From Polyangiaceae bacterium (GTDB lineage: Bacteria; Myxococcota_A; Polyangia; Polyangiales; Polyangiaceae), in assembly GCA_965222375.1 (NCBI GenBank), contig CBDCTZ010000016.1:320001-384000 (forward strand): a stretch of 64,000 nt of DNA, read 5' to 3'. The notes under the pieces are model-generated. The model worked only from the letters and a program-made list of their open reading frames with translations, was not told the DNA's origin and made no database searches. This document shows positions 14,472 to 49,509 of the stretch, piece after piece (position 1 is the first letter of the stretch; every line of letters begins with the position of its first letter). A program made the position numbers and the translations under genes.

Positions 14472-15158
14472 TCAGGGCTTCTTGGATTGGCAGGATTGGA
14501 CGTCGCCGGTGACGCAGGCGCGGCGGCGGGCGGCGGAGGCTTCGCCGTGGTGGCCTTGCGCTGCGGCGAACTCGGCGAAGACGGAGCAAGAGAACGAGCC
14601 CAGATCGCGACAACTGTCCGTCGCCAACGTCATGGCCGCAGCTTTGTCTTGGGCCACGCCTTGGCCTCGGTGCAGGGCAAGGGCTTGCATTCCGCAGGCG
14701 AAGGGCTCGCCCGCGGCGCAAGTGCGCTCGAAGATCTGATACGCACAGTCGTGATCGCTCTTATCGCCGCTGAGTCGCGCCAATCCGGCGGCGTAGTTGG
14801 TGCACGCATTGTGGTTTTGCATACGGCATGCCCGCGCGAAGGCGGCGTCCCGGCCCGGATCTTTTGCAGCCTCGAGGGCGTAGGCCACCTCCACGCATGC
14901 CGCGGAGTCATTGGCTTTGCACAGCCGCACGCACTCGGCGCTCGATGCTTTGCGACAGGGCGAGCGCTCCGAATTCAGATCGTAGGTTTTCAGTCGAAGC
15001 TCTTCCGCAAGACACTTGGGGCCGTCGGGCTCCTTGTCGGGAGCGGCCGTCGCTGTGGGGCCCGCATGCCCCCGAGCATCGCTGGGCTCGCGAGCCTGCT
15101 TGCCCCCGCACGAAGTTGGGAGCACCAGCGCGAAGAGAAGTGTGAGGGTTCGAGTCAT
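14472..15158 (-). CDS. SEL1-like repeat, Cys-rich lipoprotein
   Basis: Lipobox TSC; repeated A.AC / AC..G...C and G.GVAQD..AA motifs. Confidence 0.75.
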   Translation of the reverse strand: MTRTLTLLFALVLPTSCGGKQAREPSDARGHAGPTATAAPDKEPDGPKCLAEELRLKTYDLNSERSPCRKASSAECVRLCKANDSAACVEVAYALEAAKDPGRDAAFARACRMQNHNACTNYAAGLARLSGDKSDHDCAYQIFERTCAAGEPFACGMQALALHRGQGVAQDKAAAMTLATDSCRDLGSFSCSVFAEFAAAQGHHGEASAARRRACVTGDVQSCQSKKP

Positions 15159-15486
15159 GGCGTCCGCGGTGGTCGACTCTAGACCACTCGCGGCGAGTTC
15201 GAAGCCTTTCGTCTGCGGCCGCTAGACGACCGGGAAATCTGTCGGCCGTGAAAGGCGAACTGCGGCGCCTGCCCTGCGCACCCAGCGCCCCGCGGGGTGC
15301 TGGGCGGACTCGGGCGCCTGCCCGGCGCGCCGCGGGGCCCAGGGAGATGTGATGGGGTGGCTCGTGACCTGGTAGGTAGCCGCCGAGGCGTCTTTCGGAT
15401 GCGGAGGGCTGCCATGGTGGCCGTTCTGCATACGGTGTTCGCTTGGGCGCCGGACGCGCGAGCGATGGCTTTGCGCGAGGCGACAG

Positions 15487-15574
15487 TGGCTGTCTCCTCA
15501 TTAACGAGGTCACCGGAAACCGGGCCTCAATCAACAGACGCGCTCAAAGGCGCAGTGATTAGAGGAGACAGCCA
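15487..15574 (+). promoter_or_regulatory. 13-bp perfect inverted repeat able to sequester the transposase RBS
   Basis: TGGCTGTCTCCTC (15487-99) is complementary to GAGGAGACAGCCA (15562-74), which contains the RBS and the A of ATG. Confidence 0.6.
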
Positions 15575-16158
15575 TGGAGCATATTGGAGTCGATCTGGGT
15601 GGAAAACAATCGCAGGTGTGTGTGCGGGCCGCGGACGAAGGAATTCTGCTGGAGAAGAGGATCGCGACCAGCAGTTTGATGTGCTTCTTTCAGCACCAGC
15701 CCAAGAGCCGAATTGTACTGGAAACGTGTTCGGAAGCATTCCGAGTCGCCGACTGGGCTCTGGAATGTGGACACGAGGTGCGTGTGGTCCCAGCAACGTT
15801 GGTGCGCAGTTTGGGGGTCGGGGCTCGAGGCATCAAGACCGACCGGCGCGATGCGCAGGTCCTCAGCGAAGTCTCGTGCCGTATCGACTTGCCATCGGTG
15901 CACATCCCGGCGGAGCAGGCTCGCGACAGACGCACGATGTGCGCAATGCGCGAGCAACTGCTTGGTGCACGCACGGCATTGGCAAATGCAGTGCAAGGCT
16001 GGAGGCGTACGCAACTGTTGAAAATGTGCTCCGGCGAGCCCACGACCTTGCCCACACGCCTCCGCGCTGCAGCCCTCGCTCATCCCGATGGATTGCCGCA
16101 GCGTAACCGTTCAGGGGTTGGGTTGAGGGCCCGGCTCGGGACGTGAGATTCGTGGCGC

Positions 16159-16572
16159 ATGGCGAAGACGACGAGTAACAGCGAGGGATTGTCGGAGCGG
16201 ATCGAGCAGCTGGTTCGGGAGCACATCGCGGAAAGCCGGCGGAGCGCGCAGGAGGCGGTCGAGCGAGGCTTCGCGGTGGCGGAGACGCGGGCTGCCAGGG
16301 CGCGGAAGTCATCGACAGGGTCGAGAGGTCGCACGGGACGTCGCCGTCCACCCGAGGAAGTTACGGCGATTGGGCAGCGGCTCTACGCGGCCATCTGTGC
16401 GAGCCCCGGCAAGGGCATGGCGGCGCTGGCAGAGGAAGTCGGCATTTCGGTGCGCGAGCTGCACCGACCGATGACGCGTTTGAGGAGTGCGGGGCAGATC
16501 CGGAGCGTCGGTTCCAAGCATCTGACGCGGTACTTCCCGATGGCGGTGGACGCCGCGGCCGATACTGAGTGA
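16159..16572 (+). CDS. Passenger winged-HTH-like protein within IS66
   Basis: AI..SPG...AALAEEVG......L..PM..L...G.I...G....TRYF pattern; identical in both IS copies. Confidence 0.65.
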   Translation: MAKTTSNSEGLSERIEQLVREHIAESRRSAQEAVERGFAVAETRAARARKSSTGSRGRTGRRRPPEEVTAIGQRLYAAICASPGKGMAALAEEVGISVRELHRPMTRLRSAGQIRSVGSKHLTRYFPMAVDAAADTE

Positions 16573-16573
16573 C

Positions 16574-18028
16574 TCAAGCTGCTGCGGTCTTGAACAAGGA
16601 GGGCCAGTTTGTCCCCTCCATGCGAGCTTGGCAGGACTCGGCGAGGAAAGTCAGCACGTTCTTGTTCTGCTTGCGCGCCGTGTGCGCGATGGTCATCACG
16701 CGCTCAGCGAAGACGTTGCCACGCTTGCTCTGGCTTCCGAACGAGCCCTTGCGCCAGAGCACGAAAGCGCGCAGTTCCCTTTCGGCATGGTTGTTTGTCG
16801 GCTCCACGTCATCGCGCTCGATGAAGGTCCAAAGCGCCTCCTTGTATTTCAGAATGTTGGCGCACGACCCCGACAAGTCCTTGATGTCGAGGAGGACAGC
16901 CTTCTCGAACATGGCCTCCATCTGCTGCCGCAGCGGAGCCATCCACGCCAGAAATCGCTCCCGGGTCATTTTCCCCGCCCGGTAGTCGCGCCAATAATCG
17001 AACAAGATGCCGGTGTAGCCGAGCAAGTCTCGGCCAAGCGCGCCGGCGGGACCATCGCGCTCCGAGAACGACACAAACTTACGTAGCAAATGCGCCCAAC
17101 AGATCTGCCGGCGCTCCGCCGCCCAGAAAGTAAGTGCTGTGGCGCGATCACTTACCAAGATCCCATTCAGGTCGCCGAACAACGGCCGGAGTGTGTCTTT
17201 GGCGCCATCGGCGAGGATCCGGAACACCGTCACCGCCGCGGTGGCGATGGTCCAAAGGGACATCGTCGTGCCTGCCTGAAACCAGGTTGTTCCATCGGTG
17301 TGTTTCACATCGGCCTGGACCGCATGGTCCCAGGCTTCATTGACCGCGGGCGCGAGCGCGTCGCTGACGCGCTCTTCGACCGCACTGATCGCGCCGAGTG
17401 AAACCGAGACGCCCAGCACATCGGCAAGTAGCCCTTGCGCCTTGCGCCGGCTGAGATGATACACGCCCGTAAAGAGAGCCACTAACGCCATCAGGCGAGG
17501 TCCAAATGAGGACGTTGGGATCAGAGATTCGTCGTAGCGCGCGCAAGTGACATGGGCGCAGCCTGCGCAGGCTACCGCGTGGCGACGATACTCGGTCGTG
17601 TGCGGGCGGATGGGTGGGACCTCGGTCACCTGGTGACGATGGGCGTGCGGGTCGCGGACTTCCGGCAGCGGTTTCCAGCAATTTTCGCACTCGCGTGGGA
17701 AGTGGTCGACGAACTTGTCCACCTGATCTTCCGGCACCAAGTTTCGGTGGCTGCCCGGGTGCCCCTTCTGCCCACCTCGCTTGCGCTTCTTCTGCTTGGC
17801 CCGCGATCGACGCTCCTTCCGATTGCCCGGGGGATCGCTGGACGGTGGCTTGTGCGAATTCGACGAGTTTTGATTCAGCTTCTCCAGCAAGCTAGCAACC
17901 TGCTGCTCAAGCTCCGCGATGCGGGCATCCTGCTCCGCGATGCGCGCATCCTGCTCCGCGATGCGGGCATCTTTGGCTGCAACTTCAGCCTCGAGCTGCC
18001 GGGTACGGTCGGCCTGCGGATCGCTCAC
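16574..18028 (-). CDS. IS66 transposase (TnpC-like)
   Basis: Coiled coil, NSS.SHKPPSSD, GGQKGHPG, zinc-ribbon cysteines, HTDGT, LVSDR, QICWAHLLR, EPTNNHAERELR. Confidence 0.95.
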   Translation of the reverse strand: MSDPQADRTRQLEAEVAAKDARIAEQDARIAEQDARIAELEQQVASLLEKLNQNSSNSHKPPSSDPPGNRKERRSRAKQKKRKRGGQKGHPGSHRNLVPEDQVDKFVDHFPRECENCWKPLPEVRDPHAHRHQVTEVPPIRPHTTEYRRHAVACAGCAHVTCARYDESLIPTSSFGPRLMALVALFTGVYHLSRRKAQGLLADVLGVSVSLGAISAVEERVSDALAPAVNEAWDHAVQADVKHTDGTTWFQAGTTMSLWTIATAAVTVFRILADGAKDTLRPLFGDLNGILVSDRATALTFWAAERRQICWAHLLRKFVSFSERDGPAGALGRDLLGYTGILFDYWRDYRAGKMTRERFLAWMAPLRQQMEAMFEKAVLLDIKDLSGSCANILKYKEALWTFIERDDVEPTNNHAERELRAFVLWRKGSFGSQSKRGNVFAERVMTIAHTARKQNKNVLTFLAESCQARMEGTNWPSLFKTAAA

Positions 18029-18650
18029 CAGCGTCCCAATCGCCCATTTTTGCGAAGATGGAAAGCCGATTGAAATAATGGAGCAATCTCGATCGCTTGC
18101 GCGAGACCGCGGTGTCCAGGCGCCCTACCCCTGAACGGTTACGCCGCAGCACGTCGAGCGTCTTTTGCAGGCCATCGAAGCTCTCAACGTGCAGATCAAG
18201 GAAGCCAACGAGGAGCTCAGGGCCCTGGCGAAGAAGGACCCAGTCTGTCAGCGTCTCATGACGGTGCCCGGTATCGGTCCGGCAACCAGCATGCGCTTTG
18301 TGGCAGCACTCGACGACAGGACACGTTTTCCGAGCGCTCACTCTGTCGAAGCCTTTCTTGGGCTGACTCCGGGCGAGAAATCCAGCGGCGATCGTCAGCA
18401 ACGGCTCGGGATCACCAAGGCCGGACCGGCGATGGTGCGCACCAACTTGGTGCAGGCGGCGTGGACCTTTCGGCGTACACGGCCCAACGACCCAATGTCC
18501 AAGTGGGCAGAGCAAATCGAGCAACGCCGTGGCAAATTCATCGCTACCGTGGCGTTGGCCCGCAAACTAGCTGGCGTGCTCTTCGCGTTGTGGCGCGACG
18601 GCTCTGTATACGAGCTCAACCATCGAAAGGCAGCGCAAACCGTGGCGTAG

Positions 18651-19009
18651 AAAACCTCCAGACTCCGGCAGCCCACAAGGTTGACCTGAGAAAGCCAATC
18701 AACGGCTGTCCAGAGGCGGTGAGCGCGTTACTCTCGCTCCAGGCGTCCAGCGAAAGCTGGCCACGACCTTGTCACGGCGATTGCGCCCCGCCAACGGACC
18801 TCCACCTATGCGCCATTGCGAGCGCGAATAGTCGATTCAGACAGCCCGTTCTTGGTTTCCTCGTCTTCCGACAAGCCACGACCGCGAATAGTCGATTCAG
18901 ACAGCCTGAGCTGGACTTTCTCCCCAACCAACGCGCTGCCGACGAAGAACTCCCCTCTACCTCAGGGCGACGGACCACTTTGTTCTGGACGGACAGGCCA
19001 CCCCATAGT
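18651..19009 (+). ncRNA. Putative bridge/seek RNA in the IS110 right non-coding end
   Basis: GAGGCG (18713-18) and TACTCTCGC (18729-37) match the two strands of the reconstructed target; ATAGTCGA (18828-35, 18888-95) matches the element end 19005-12. Confidence 0.65.
18823..18906. repeat. 24-nt direct repeat CGCGAATAGTCGATTCAGACAGCC x2 with a 36-nt spacer
   Basis: Copies at 18823-46 and 18883-906. Confidence 0.9.
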
Positions 19010-19057
19010 CGAGAGTAGTGGCCCGGATCCGTCAAGGGACCCGACCCCCAAAACCAA
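19010..19057 (+). repeat. GTAG/REP-like dispersed repeat, copy 3 (IS110-occupied; left flank at 15469-15483)
   Basis: CGAGAGTAGTGGCCC...GGGACCCGACCCCCAAAACCAA. Confidence 0.75.
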
Positions 19058-19081
19058 TTCACCCACGCTGGCTCTACGGCG

Positions 19082-19813
19082 TCAGCACAGGAAGCAGTAG
19101 GGATAGTCCCAGAGCCCGCCGCAGTCGTTGACGCATTCGCTGTGGGTGAGCAGTTGGCCGCGGCAGAAGTGATAGGGCCCGCAGGTGCCTGGGCCCACGC
19201 TGCCCGTGCCGCTGCCGCTTTGGGGACTCGACATGCCTTCGGGCGCGTCTCCGCAGGGGCTGTAGACGCAGTCCGTGGGCGAGAGCTTTCGGCACACTCG
19301 CTCGAAGTTGTCTGCGGAGTTTTCCGCAAAGTTCTTGCTGCTTGCAGACATCGAACCCCAGTTGCGGTGGTCGTCCGCCAGGATGTGGTGCAACTCGTGG
19401 GCGAGGTTTTGGTCGATCTCAGTGCCCGATGCGGTGCTGCGCATCGCGATGATGCTCTGGCCGCCCGCGCCCACGCAGGCGAAGGAGTAGCGATCCGGTG
19501 CGCGCCCCGGCGGGAAGAAGTACACGTCGTTCTGGGCGACGAAGTCTTTGACCTCTTTGCACAGAGCCGTGGAGCGGAAGCGGATCCCGTTCTGAGTCGT
19601 GCTGTCCGGCTTGTAGATCCAGGACGGGCAATTGGCCTGCGCACCCCGAGTCCCGCGGCCTCCACCCACGATGTTCTCGTCGTAGACGCCGCGGGTCAGG
19701 CCGCTGGCCGTGGTGGCGACCGCTTCGCCGGGCTCTTCGTCGGTGTGGGCGGCGCAGCTCGAGGCGGTGATGGTGACCAGGCTTAGCAGGAACGCTGTTC
19801 GAAAAGTCTTCAT
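19082..19813 (-). CDS. Cys-rich lipoprotein with an HExxH motif
   Basis: Lipobox SSC; LAHELHH; Cys-rich tail. Confidence 0.6.
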   Translation of the reverse strand: MKTFRTAFLLSLVTITASSCAAHTDEEPGEAVATTASGLTRGVYDENIVGGGRGTRGAQANCPSWIYKPDSTTQNGIRFRSTALCKEVKDFVAQNDVYFFPPGRAPDRYSFACVGAGGQSIIAMRSTASGTEIDQNLAHELHHILADDHRNWGSMSASSKNFAENSADNFERVCRKLSPTDCVYSPCGDAPEGMSSPQSGSGTGSVGPGTCGPYHFCRGQLLTHSECVNDCGGLWDYPYCFLC

Positions 19814-47075: not shown

Positions 47076-47524
47076 GGGCCCCGCCGTCTCTTGGACGTTG
47101 GCTTGCAGCCAGTGAACCAACGCCTCCAGGGTGAGCCGCCCCGAGGCGACGGACATTACGACGCTTTCCTGTTCGTCGTCCGTAGCGATGATTTCGAAAC
47201 CGTTCAGTACGAGGAAGACTTCCATCGCGGCGTGACCGATTCGCTTGTTTCCGTCGATAAAGGGATGACCTTGTATGAGCGCGAAACCAAGCGCGGCGGC
47301 TTTCTCAACAAGGGTTGGGTGCAGCTCGACACCATCGAACGTGGCGAGAGGTTGTGCGAGTGCGGATTGAACTCGCCCGAGGTCGCGCACACCGGCGGCA
47401 CCGCCGGAAGGTAACCGTTCAGGGGTAGGGCGCCTGGACACCGCGGTCTCGCGCAAGCGATCGAGATTGCTCCATTATTTCAATCGGCTTTCCATCTTCG
47501 CAAAAATGGGCGATTGGGACGCTG

Positions 47525-48979
47525 GTGAGCGATCCGCAGGCCGACCGTACCCGGCAGCTCGAGGCTGAAGTTGCAGCCAAAGATGCCCGCATCGCGGAGC
47601 AGGATGCGCGCATCGCGGAGCAGGATGCCCGCATCGCGGAGCTTGAGCAGCAGGTTGCTAGCTTGCTGGAGAAGCTGAATCAAAACTCGTCGAATTCGCA
47701 CAAGCCACCGTCCAGCGATCCCCCGGGCAATCGGAAGGAGCGTCGATCGCGGGCCAAGCAGAAGAAGCGCAAGCGAGGTGGGCAGAAGGGGCACCCGGGC
47801 AGCCACCGAAACTTGGTGCCGGAAGATCAGGTGGACAAGTTCGTCGACCACTTCCCACGCGAGTGCGAAAATTGCTGGAAACCGCTGCCGGAAGTCCGCG
47901 ACCCGCACGCCCATCGTCACCAGGTGACCGAGGTCCCACCCATCCGCCCGCACACGACCGAGTATCGTCGCCACGCGGTAGCCTGCGCAGGCTGCGCCCA
48001 TGTCACTTGCGCGCGCTACGACGAATCTCTGATCCCAACGTCCTCATTTGGACCTCGCCTGATGGCGTTAGTGGCTCTCTTTACGGGCGTGTATCATCTC
48101 AGCCGGCGCAAGGCGCAAGGGCTACTTGCCGATGTGCTGGGCGTCTCGGTTTCACTCGGCGCGATCAGTGCGGTCGAAGAGCGCGTCAGCGACGCGCTCG
48201 CGCCCGCGGTCAATGAAGCCTGGGACCATGCGGTCCAGGCCGATGTGAAACACACCGATGGAACAACCTGGTTTCAGGCAGGCACGACGATGTCCCTTTG
48301 GACCATCGCCACCGCGGCGGTGACGGTGTTCCGGATCCTCGCCGATGGCGCCAAAGACACACTCCGGCCGTTGTTCGGCGACCTGAATGGGATCTTGGTA
48401 AGTGATCGCGCCACAGCACTTACTTTCTGGGCGGCGGAGCGCCGGCAGATCTGTTGGGCGCATTTGCTACGTAAGTTTGTGTCGTTCTCGGAGCGCGATG
48501 GTCCCGCCGGCGCGCTTGGCCGAGACTTGCTCGGCTACACCGGCATCTTGTTCGATTATTGGCGCGACTACCGGGCGGGGAAAATGACCCGGGAGCGATT
48601 TCTGGCGTGGATGGCTCCGCTGCGGCAGCAGATGGAGGCTATGTTCGAGAAGGCTGTCCTCCTCGACATCAAGGACTTGTCGGGGTCGTGCGCCAACATT
48701 CTGAAATACAAGGAGGCGCTTTGGACCTTCATCGAGCGCGATGACGTGGAGCCGACAAACAACCATGCCGAAAGGGAACTGCGCGCTTTCGTGCTCTGGC
48801 GCAAGGGCTCGTTCGGAAGCCAGAGCAAGCGTGGCAACGTCTTCGCTGAGCGCGTGATGACCATCGCGCACACGGCGCGCAAGCAGAACAAGAACGTGCT
48901 GACTTTCCTCGCCGAGTCCTGCCAAGCTCGCATGGAGGGGACAAACTGGCCCTCCTTGTTCAAGACCGCAGCAGCTTGA
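47525..48979 (+). CDS. IS66 transposase (TnpC-like)
   Basis: Identical protein to 16574-18028. Confidence 0.95.
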   Translation: MSDPQADRTRQLEAEVAAKDARIAEQDARIAEQDARIAELEQQVASLLEKLNQNSSNSHKPPSSDPPGNRKERRSRAKQKKRKRGGQKGHPGSHRNLVPEDQVDKFVDHFPRECENCWKPLPEVRDPHAHRHQVTEVPPIRPHTTEYRRHAVACAGCAHVTCARYDESLIPTSSFGPRLMALVALFTGVYHLSRRKAQGLLADVLGVSVSLGAISAVEERVSDALAPAVNEAWDHAVQADVKHTDGTTWFQAGTTMSLWTIATAAVTVFRILADGAKDTLRPLFGDLNGILVSDRATALTFWAAERRQICWAHLLRKFVSFSERDGPAGALGRDLLGYTGILFDYWRDYRAGKMTRERFLAWMAPLRQQMEAMFEKAVLLDIKDLSGSCANILKYKEALWTFIERDDVEPTNNHAERELRAFVLWRKGSFGSQSKRGNVFAERVMTIAHTARKQNKNVLTFLAESCQARMEGTNWPSLFKTAAA

Positions 48980-48980
48980 G

Positions 48981-49394
48981 TCACTCAGTATCGGCCGCGG
49001 CGTCCACCGCCATCGGGAAGTACCGCGTCAGATGCTTGGAACCGACGCTCCGGATCTGCCCCGCACTCCTCAAACGCGTCATCGGTCGGTGCAGCTCGCG
49101 CACCGAAATGCCGACTTCCTCTGCCAGCGCCGCCATGCCCTTGCCGGGGCTCGCACAGATGGCCGCGTAGAGCCGCTGCCCAATCGCCGTAACTTCCTCG
49201 GGTGGACGGCGACGTCCCGTGCGACCTCTCGACCCTGTCGATGACTTCCGCGCCCTGGCAGCCCGCGTCTCCGCCACCGCGAAGCCTCGCTCGACCGCCT
49301 CCTGCGCGCTCCGCCGGCTTTCCGCGATGTGCTCCCGAACCAGCTGCTCGATCCGCTCCGACAATCCCTCGCTGTTACTCGTCGTCTTCGCCAT
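48981..49394 (-). CDS. Passenger winged-HTH-like protein within IS66
   Basis: Identical to 16159-16572. Confidence 0.65.
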   Translation of the reverse strand: MAKTTSNSEGLSERIEQLVREHIAESRRSAQEAVERGFAVAETRAARARKSSTGSRGRTGRRRPPEEVTAIGQRLYAAICASPGKGMAALAEEVGISVRELHRPMTRLRSAGQIRSVGSKHLTRYFPMAVDAAADTE

Positions 49395-49509
49395 GCGCCA
49401 CGAATCTCACGTCCCGAGCCGGGCCCTCAACCCAACCCCTGAACGGTTACGCCGGAAGAGGCTACCAGGGCAGCGTGAAGCCTGAGCACCTCGCCGAGTG
49501 TCAGGAACC

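Follow-up and report, generated by a model that had tools for sequence, protein, structure and literature searches.

Does the non-coding region that follows the transposase gene of this IS110-family element (359 nt, 18651-19009, against 229 nt upstream of the gene, 15345-15573) encode an RNA that chooses where the element inserts? The region lies in a 64,000-nucleotide stretch of a Polyangiaceae genome, hereafter the window. An earlier note, made from the letters of the window, had read RNA guides in this region after the model of the IS621 bridge RNA and the IS1111 seekRNA. The protein family of the transposase is experimentally RNA-guided. We find that the region is very probably the 3' non-coding end of an IS1111-subgroup element encoding a bridge/seekRNA of about 150 nt, whose guides would read a REP-like target as well as the element's own ends, and with which the RNA-bound transposase would insert 5' of a CG. 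The earlier reading of an IS110-family right non-coding end with readable RNA guides is supported. It was real and partly misread, with about half of the guide letters correct, and all of its quoted strings are found in place: GAGGCG (18713-18), TACTCTCGC (18729-37), ATAGTCGA (18888-95), TCAG-ACAGC-CTGA (18897-18909), GCTG (18910-13), CCATAGT-CGA-GAGTAG (19003-18) and GCGAGG-CGA-CAGTGG (15475-89).

The element, its copies and its target

The genome (10.56 Mb in 16 contigs) harbors eight copies of the element, one of which occupies 15345-19009 (+) of the window and measures 1617 bp without a foreign insertion. Seven of the eight copies are intact, identical and 1617 bp long, with 0 mismatches relative to the window copy once the insertion is removed, and therefore the repair or resurrection that had been envisaged for this transposase is not needed. 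All eight share one orientation and each is found inside a REP-like repeat, GGCCC-N4-CG-AGAGTAG-TGGCCC (Table 1). When the copies were compared together with their flanks, identity on the left began at 15344/15345 and on the right ran up to ...CCCCATAGTCGAGAGTAG, beyond which the copies diverge. The frame 15345-19009 was fixed with homologues from other genomes, in which variable sequence comes after CAT(A/G)(G/C)T at every right end and before AGA(T/A/C)... at every left end. The bases at the left junction are AG, and those at the right junction CG, in 8/8 own copies, and AG recurs at every identified left end among the homologues. All eight copies are situated between GGCCC-N4 and CG-AGAGTAG, and no base is duplicated at insertion. 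An alternative left end at GAGATG was rejected: it leaves the left flank 2 nt short of the unoccupied repeat, a mismatch that is cured by letting the element begin with AG.

Table 1. Features of the element, of its insertion site and of the predicted RNA (window coordinates)
Feature	Position	Strand	Remarks
Whole element	15345..19009	+	begins with the 7-nt extension AGATGTG and ends with the 3-nt extension AGT
Left half of target repeat, GGCCC + N4 (AGGG)	15336..15344	+	GGCCC-N4 spacing as in unoccupied GGCCC-N4-CG-AGAGTAG
Right half of target repeat, CG-AGAGTAG-TGGCCC	19010..19024	+	identical string in hundreds of unoccupied repeats
Target site around the junction			GGCCCACGG-CG-AGAGTAGTGGCCC
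Left subterminal inverted repeat, ATGGGGTGGC	15352..15361	+	reverse complement of 18997-19006; kept in homologues
Right subterminal inverted repeat, GCCACCCCAT (18997-19006), with 3-nt extension AGT	18997..19009	+	
5' UTR hairpin, GGCTGTCTCC (15488-97) / GGAGACAGCC (15564-73)	15488..15573	+	covers the ribosome-binding site immediately upstream of the start codon (ATG, 15574)
Transposase, N-terminal part, DEDD/RuvC-like domain	15574..16102	+	interrupted by the insertion; PF01548, E 6e-12
IS66-like element, 2040 bp, within the transposase gene	16103..18142	-	PF03050, NF033517; terminal inverted repeats
Transposase, C-terminal part, Transposase_20 domain with GLTPGEKSSG	18151..18650	+	PF02371, E 5e-23
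Predicted bridge/seekRNA, ~150 nt	about 18699..18852	+	32-sequence alignment, pair counts, centroid fold, covariance model R1
Outer closing stem P1 (predicted)	18701-10 with 18840-50	+	
Stem P2 (predicted)	18715-19 with 18788-92	+	
Single pair (predicted)	18721 with 18787	+	
Stem P3 (predicted)	18723-26 with 18783-86	+	
Right-flank guide (T), TTACTCTCGC	18728..18737	+	complementary to the top strand of G-CG-AGAGTA
Inner hairpin (predicted)	18747-60	+	
Left-flank guide (B), TCACGG + CG + ATT	18772..18782	+	TCACGG 18772-77, CG 18778-79
Candidate right-donor guide, CCACCT	18802..18807	+	complementary to AG-A-TG of the left end, one mismatch
Stem P5 (predicted)	18810-13 with 18822-25	+	
Putative left-donor guide, ATAGT + CG + ATT	18828..18837	+	same sense as the right end
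Second copy of CGCGAATAGTCGATTCAGACAGCC	18883..18906	+	24-nt duplicate of 18823-46, outside the conserved RNA

These ends bear directly on the earlier reading. The right end, CCATAGT followed by CG, had been set correctly. The left end had been placed at 15484, but the eight copies are identical for about 140 nt further upstream. The string at 15475-89 is consequently internal, about 140 nt from the true left end, and represents neither a junction nor a left flank, so that both the left half of the target reconstructed from it (GCGAGG-CGA), which lies inside the element, and the predicted circle junction CCATAGT-CGA-CAGTGG are wrong. The proposed donor pairing between GCTG and CAGT rests on the same misplaced end and is wrong as well. 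The CGA core suggested for both ends is replaced by AG at the left junction and CG at the right, with no duplication.

As for the target, CGAGAGTAG followed by TGGCCC is present at hundreds of places in the genome without the element, and CG-AGAGTAG therefore belongs to the target, in agreement with the earlier note. A further 311 GAGTAG+NGGCC-like sites were found in the genome, and their consensus, CCGCG-TGGCCC-AGCG-CG-AGAGTAG-TGGCCC, continues in this REP-like family of more than 300 sites as -N7-CCCCA..GATGCGACCCCAAACC (for example at C11:298153, C13:363104 and 19010-19065 of the window). The repeats are sometimes arranged in tandem (C15:495945). We also observed a solitary right-end fragment of 59 nt, 95% identical, at C14:932102-932160 (-); it adjoins GAGTAGTGGCCC, has unrelated sequence on its left and is probably the remnant of a deleted copy.

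By its anatomy, including the 7-nt left extension, the element belongs to the IS1111 subgroup of the IS110 family. Its subterminal inverted repeats are 10 bp long and carry extensions of 7 nt (AGATGTG) on the left and 3 nt (AGT) on the right; for IS1111 members, the published account, available to us in part, describes subterminal inverted repeats with a required 7 bp left extension (PMC11187229). Section 6 of the same account lists a transposase of 330-350 aa and the motif GL-P----S(T)G as traits of the subgroup. The intact transposase (L014:1635-2663, within the copy at L014:1406-3022) has 342 aa with GLTPGEKSSG and scores 245 bits, with a cut-off of 140, against the NCBIfam model NF033542, 'IS110 family RNA-guided transposase', and its C-terminal domain aligns to the IS621 and ISCro4 chains (E 1e-8 and 3e-9, respectively).

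The foreign insertion in the window copy is an IS66-like element with the 8-bp duplication GCCGCAGC on either side (16095-16102 and 18143-18150), and one contig of run X3 connects 16094 to 18143. This IS66-like element is present in four copies in the genome with 99.95-100% identity, the second one in the window at 47411-49450 (-). Its only transposase gene encodes 484 aa, and on the opposite strand there is an HTH open reading frame of 137 aa. Upstream of the interrupted gene, the arms of the 5' UTR hairpin vary jointly in two homologues, G113 (GGCTGACTCC/GGAGTCAGCC) and G108, as read by eye, and the hairpin is probably a translational brake on read-through transcripts. On the other side, the gene adjoining the element (19082-19813, -) encodes a 243-aa protein with a signal- or lipoprotein-like start and an HELHH motif; the protein gave no Pfam match at E 0.01 and may be a small secreted metalloprotease.

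Structure and distribution of the predicted RNA

A homologue search with the single transposase protein returned no relative, and a search with an alignment of four transposases returned 77 loci, mostly in Myxococcota MAGs. Among 82 scanned loci, 46 contain a conserved block after the transposase gene, representing 33 distinct sequences, of which 32 were aligned with MAFFT (L020, with an aberrant 3' part, was excluded). The 31 proposed pairs are formed in 84.1% of the cells of this alignment versus 74.0% in shuffles, and 23 of them show changes on both sides versus 13.8 in shuffles; 0/500 shuffles equalled the observed values. In a control with partners slid by 1-3 columns, only 33-43% of the cells were paired. 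Stems P2 and P3 are 97.8% paired across the 32 sequences and the inner stem P4 only 54%, the MAFFT alignment being unreliable within the variable hairpin. Compensatory changes were detected in P1, P2, P3 and P5, the same four stems that are recovered in the single-sequence centroid fold of the window copy, a fold that is not unusually stable (z -1.5). The RNAalifold consensus differs in one respect, as it pairs GTCC (18708-11) with GGAC (18796-99), an arrangement that excludes P1, which is absent from that consensus. We prefer P1 since both partners vary in the outer pairs and in three inner ones, whereas the GTCC/GGAC pairing barely varies (17-116: GC 19, GU 11) and cannot be judged for that reason. 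GAGGCG, previously taken for the left guide, falls within P2 (it shares positions with 18715-19), and its variants are accompanied by compensating changes at 18788-92. It is therefore a piece of the scaffold, and the left-flank guide is TCACGG(CG) at 18772-79.

A covariance model built from the RNA alignment (R1) has exactly 8 matches in the genome, all within the copies of the element, and detected no RNA copy away from it. Beyond this genome, R1 produced strong matches at seven further loci and only weak, incomplete ones (E 3e-4 to 0.07) beside transposases that are 35-39% identical. It found no match in the IS1111-like element of the E. coli plasmid locus L121, and Rfam 15 yielded nothing relevant for 15000-19600, even at E up to 10, with no relevant family reaching its gathering score anywhere in the window. 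Homology to characterised seekRNAs is accordingly one of architecture and not of sequence. The genome also encodes a second, distant IS110-family transposase (33% identical, C15:436983-437978), and at this second IS110-family locus (L043) R1 gave no match at E up to 1.

The only records from RNA libraries belong to a relative and come from two estuary metatranscriptomes of two studies, in the form of three 151-nt contigs, about 95% identical over 18660-18858 and possibly derived from DNA carry-over. The two libraries contain small shares, 0.07 and 0.05, of the sampled words, and one record spans 18698-18848, nearly from P1 to P1. Six differences separate the relative from the window copy, two in the right-flank guide (18731, 18734), two in the left-flank guide (18775, 18776) and the others at 18761 and 18770. 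This looks like a natural retargeting with the scaffold unchanged, and it is a lead only, since such libraries can contain DNA and the insertion flanks are not known. The circle junction, with abutted ends, was absent from the contigs of runs X3-X6, which are runs of unknown kind represented by contigs only.

Guides for the flanks, candidate guides for the ends, and competing readings

The right half of the target is matched by the right-flank guide, the reverse complement of which begins G-CG-AGAGTA. The earlier note had named TACTCTCGC as the right guide, rightly so: it is complementary to CG+AGAGTA and its position covaries with the right flank in homologues. The left-flank guide is of the same sense as the left flank and could hence pair with the bottom strand. 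A comparison of guides and flanks among homologues had been proposed in that note, and we carried it out on both sides of the element. An uninterrupted right-flank match of at least 7 nt from the junction occurs in 21/33 distinct cognate element/flank pairs versus 4/1048 non-cognate pairs, and a left-flank match of at least 5 nt up to the junction in 15/26 cognate pairs (seven of these left flanks were entered by hand) versus 2/644 non-cognate pairs, cognate-pair and covariation counts that overstate significance, as the relatives are not independent. Below the threshold are 12/33 pairs on the right, including one-base register shifts (L061, L065, L094 and L120) and apparently non-cognate sites (L053, L056, L080 and L091), and 11/26 pairs on the left.

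The left-flank guide can also be compared with sites inside the genome under study. At the eight occupied sites, no more than 3-5 of the 6 letters of TCACGG are matched, on average 3.9, compared to a mean of 1.9 for 96 unoccupied REP-like sites with CGAGAGTA (Mann-Whitney p 2.6e-5). None of 279 unoccupied CGAGAGTA sites exceeds 4/6, and 0/179 permutations of the guide letters separate occupied from unoccupied sites as well as TCACGG does. The predicted guides are arranged as in IS1111, the right-flank (top-strand) guide preceding a hairpin and the left-flank guide following it, and not in the left-then-right order of IS621 that had been assumed; in IS1111-type seekRNAs, as described in the part of the paper available to us, the match to the top strand lies 5' of the one to the bottom strand (Siddiquee et al. 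2024, PMC11187229). In the tail of the left-flank guide, the base after CG-A equals the left-end base in 21/21 distinct elements (T/T 16, A/A 4, C/C 1), an agreement that reflects few independent changes.

Candidate guides for the element's ends were found next to P5. The left-donor 5-mer is identical to the element's own right-end 5-mer in 30/31 distinct elements, following it through four variants (ATAGT 15, ATACT 12, ATGGT 2, ATGCT 1). The bases after its CG showed no covariation by eye with the left end in the homologue rows compared. For the candidate right-donor guide the signal is weak: two neighboring columns covary with positions 4 and 5 of the left end, with 77% complementarity in each case. 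In IS1111 bridge RNAs, the donor-binding nucleotides are placed in the multiloop (Durrant et al. 2024, PMC11208160, seen in part). The donor motif ATAGTCGA of the earlier note is real in that its ATAGTCG equals the right end, but the wrong copy had been chosen, as the conserved one is located at 18828-35 and not at 18888-95. Similarly, the hairpin TCAG-ACAGC-CTGA exists but only in the 24-nt duplicate; in the conserved copy, GACAGCC forms the 3' arm of P1. No second copy of CGCGAATAGTCGATTCAGACAGCC was found at the corresponding place in the other homologue sequences compared. Tandem repeats of the element tail are known from homologues, where they lie downstream of the right ends (L053:3818-3860, L069 and L076), and the repeat of L076 starts at an internal motif equal to the right end. 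The 24-nt duplicate may share its origin with these tail repeats, and the DNA encoding the left-donor guide may act as a pseudo-end.

How far do these observations constrain the role of the region? The reading closest to IS621 holds that GAGGCG is the left guide and is followed by TACTCTCGC, that a CGA core exists at both junctions of an element ending at 15484/19012, and that the donor is bound via ATAGTCGA (18888) and GCTG. It accounts for strings that do exist and for the right guide and right end, which are correct. We regard it as extremely improbable, considering that the eight copies remain identical about 140 nt upstream of 15484, that GAGGCG is kept irrespective of the flank, with compensating changes at 18788-92, that the left junction is AG and not CGA, and that the 18888 copy is absent from the other homologue sequences compared. 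Nor do the complementarities have to reflect a functional RNA, since they could be features of the DNA (a decoy site, or a fragment captured from the target repeat) or arise by chance. The ordinary stability of the single-sequence fold is in keeping with this. Compensatory changes in P1, P2, P3 and P5, on the other hand, are predicted by an RNA structure and not by a DNA site, and the guides covary with unrelated flanks in many genomes, which makes an explanation without RNA very improbable.

The more serious alternative grants the RNA but restricts it to the target: a short seekRNA would consist of P2/P3 and the two flank guides, the protein would read the ends through the subterminal repeats, and ATAGT-CG and CCACCT would belong to the scaffold or echo the right end at the level of the DNA. 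A precedent is the 82-nt seekRNA of ISEc11, which contains only two target matches and sufficed for transposition (section 10 of PMC11187229, a source available to us in part). The weak right-donor covariation points the same way, as do the tail tandem repeats beside the motif in L053, L069 and L076. Moreover, ATAGT-CG is of the same sense as the right end, so that duplication or gene conversion could keep both alike. Set against this are the tracking of four right-end variants by the motif in 30/31 elements and the position of the motif in the junction strands between the covarying P5 and P1, as in the IS1111 bridge RNAs described in the part of PMC11208160 available to us. On balance we consider a target-only RNA unlikely and favor the RNA that reads both the target and the ends of the element.

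Proposed mechanism and comparison with known systems

By analogy with ISEc11, ISPa11 and IS621, an RNA that reads target and ends could operate as follows. P1 would close a three-way junction, with the P2/P3 arm presenting, in an internal loop, the right-flank guide, then the hairpin and the left-flank guide, and the two flank guides would jointly read a REP-like site of the form ..GGCCC-(A)CGG-CG-AGAGTAG... The junction strands beside the small hairpin P5 would provide short guides for the ends of the element, CCACCT for the left and ATAGT-CG for the right. The element is expected to excise as a circle with its ends abutted, ...CCCCATAGT|AGATGTGATGG..., which would create a promoter composed of TGGACG (18986-91), a spacing of 17 nt and T|AGATG. 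In most of the homologues compared, the junction would put TTGAC of the right end 17 nt before T|AGAT. Junction promoters are known for IS1111 elements, according to the part of PMC11187229 available to us. The RNA, presumed to be made and to bind the transposase, would then direct recombination: on the RNA-loaded DEDD/Ser transposase, the flank guides would anneal to both strands of the REP-like site and the donor guides to the junction, and strands would be exchanged immediately 5' of CG, giving insertion in one orientation and with no duplication.

In this clade, both bottom-strand guides read as chimeras, LT + CG + A(T/A/C)T and ATAGT + CG + ATT, and the donor's own first junction bases are AG, for which CCACCT is the candidate reader. 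Together with the tail base that agrees with the left end, this invites speculation about a built-in bottom-strand 'handshake', or about a direction set by an intended mismatch in the first base of the crossover, although we judge either idea to be distinctly unlikely. If true, it would account for the constancy of AG at the left junction and of CG at the right one. Nothing of this kind is described for IS1111-type RNAs in the portions of PMC11187229 and PMC11208160 that we consulted.

RNA-guided target choice by IS1111 elements was published in 2024 (PMC11187229, PMC11208160, both available to us in part), and the clade may already be listed in the supplements of either paper, the second of which predicts a bridge RNA for 93% of IS1111 elements. 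What is added here is a well-resolved Myxococcota clade of RNA-guided IS1111 elements with 32 distinct aligned RNAs and 7 further strongly matching loci, in which the guides have been naturally rewritten for different sites and the scaffold is still alignable. Such a series is useful for the rules of IS1111-type guides, including lengths, register, tolerated mismatches and donor guides in the multiloop, which are less known than those of IS621. It also illustrates the reach of a sequence-only reading, which obtained the right end and two guides, the left end not being settable without a second copy.

Comparison with known systems places the element closest to IS1111. The IS621 bridge RNA (IS110 subgroup; PDB 8wt6) is alike in principle, as target and donor guides are kept apart on a single RNA and each of them reads both strands at the crossover. 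In contrast, the IS621 RNA lies upstream in the left end, with its left guide before the right, and has two simple internal loops, whereas the present RNA lies downstream and has its right-flank guide first. The core of IS621 is an identical CT at both junctions, whereas the present element has AG at its left junction and CG at its right one. ISPpu9 and ISPpu10 of Pseudomonas putida, as far as covered in the accessible part of PMC12288879, are likewise multicopy IS110-family elements inserted in repetitive extragenic palindromes, and ISPpu9 contains internal repeats of end-like boxes. Its downstream small RNA, Ssr9, is dispensable for transposition and moves as its own module, while the present RNA is found only within the element.

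The IS1111 seekRNAs of ISEc11, ISPa11, ISKpn4 and ISPst6 (PMC11187229, in the part available to us) share more with the present system: a DEDD transposase that is 330-350 aa long and carries GL-P----S/TG, a 7-bp left extension outside the subterminal inverted repeats, a long non-coding region downstream of the gene, a top-strand match 5' of the bottom-strand match with both overlapping at the insertion point, no target duplication, and natural redirection by changes of guide letters alone. The present RNA differs in lacking detectable sequence similarity to them (R1 finds nothing in L121), the transposase is less than 35% identical to the plasmid-borne relatives found, and a 229-nt upstream non-coding region also exists in an element that is known here from its sequence. 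Finally, the bridge RNAs predicted for the IS1111 elements ISPa11 and ISPpu10 (Durrant et al. 2024, PMC11208160, seen in part) resemble the RNA proposed here in their location in the right end, in target guides held in an internal loop and in donor nucleotides held in the multiloop.
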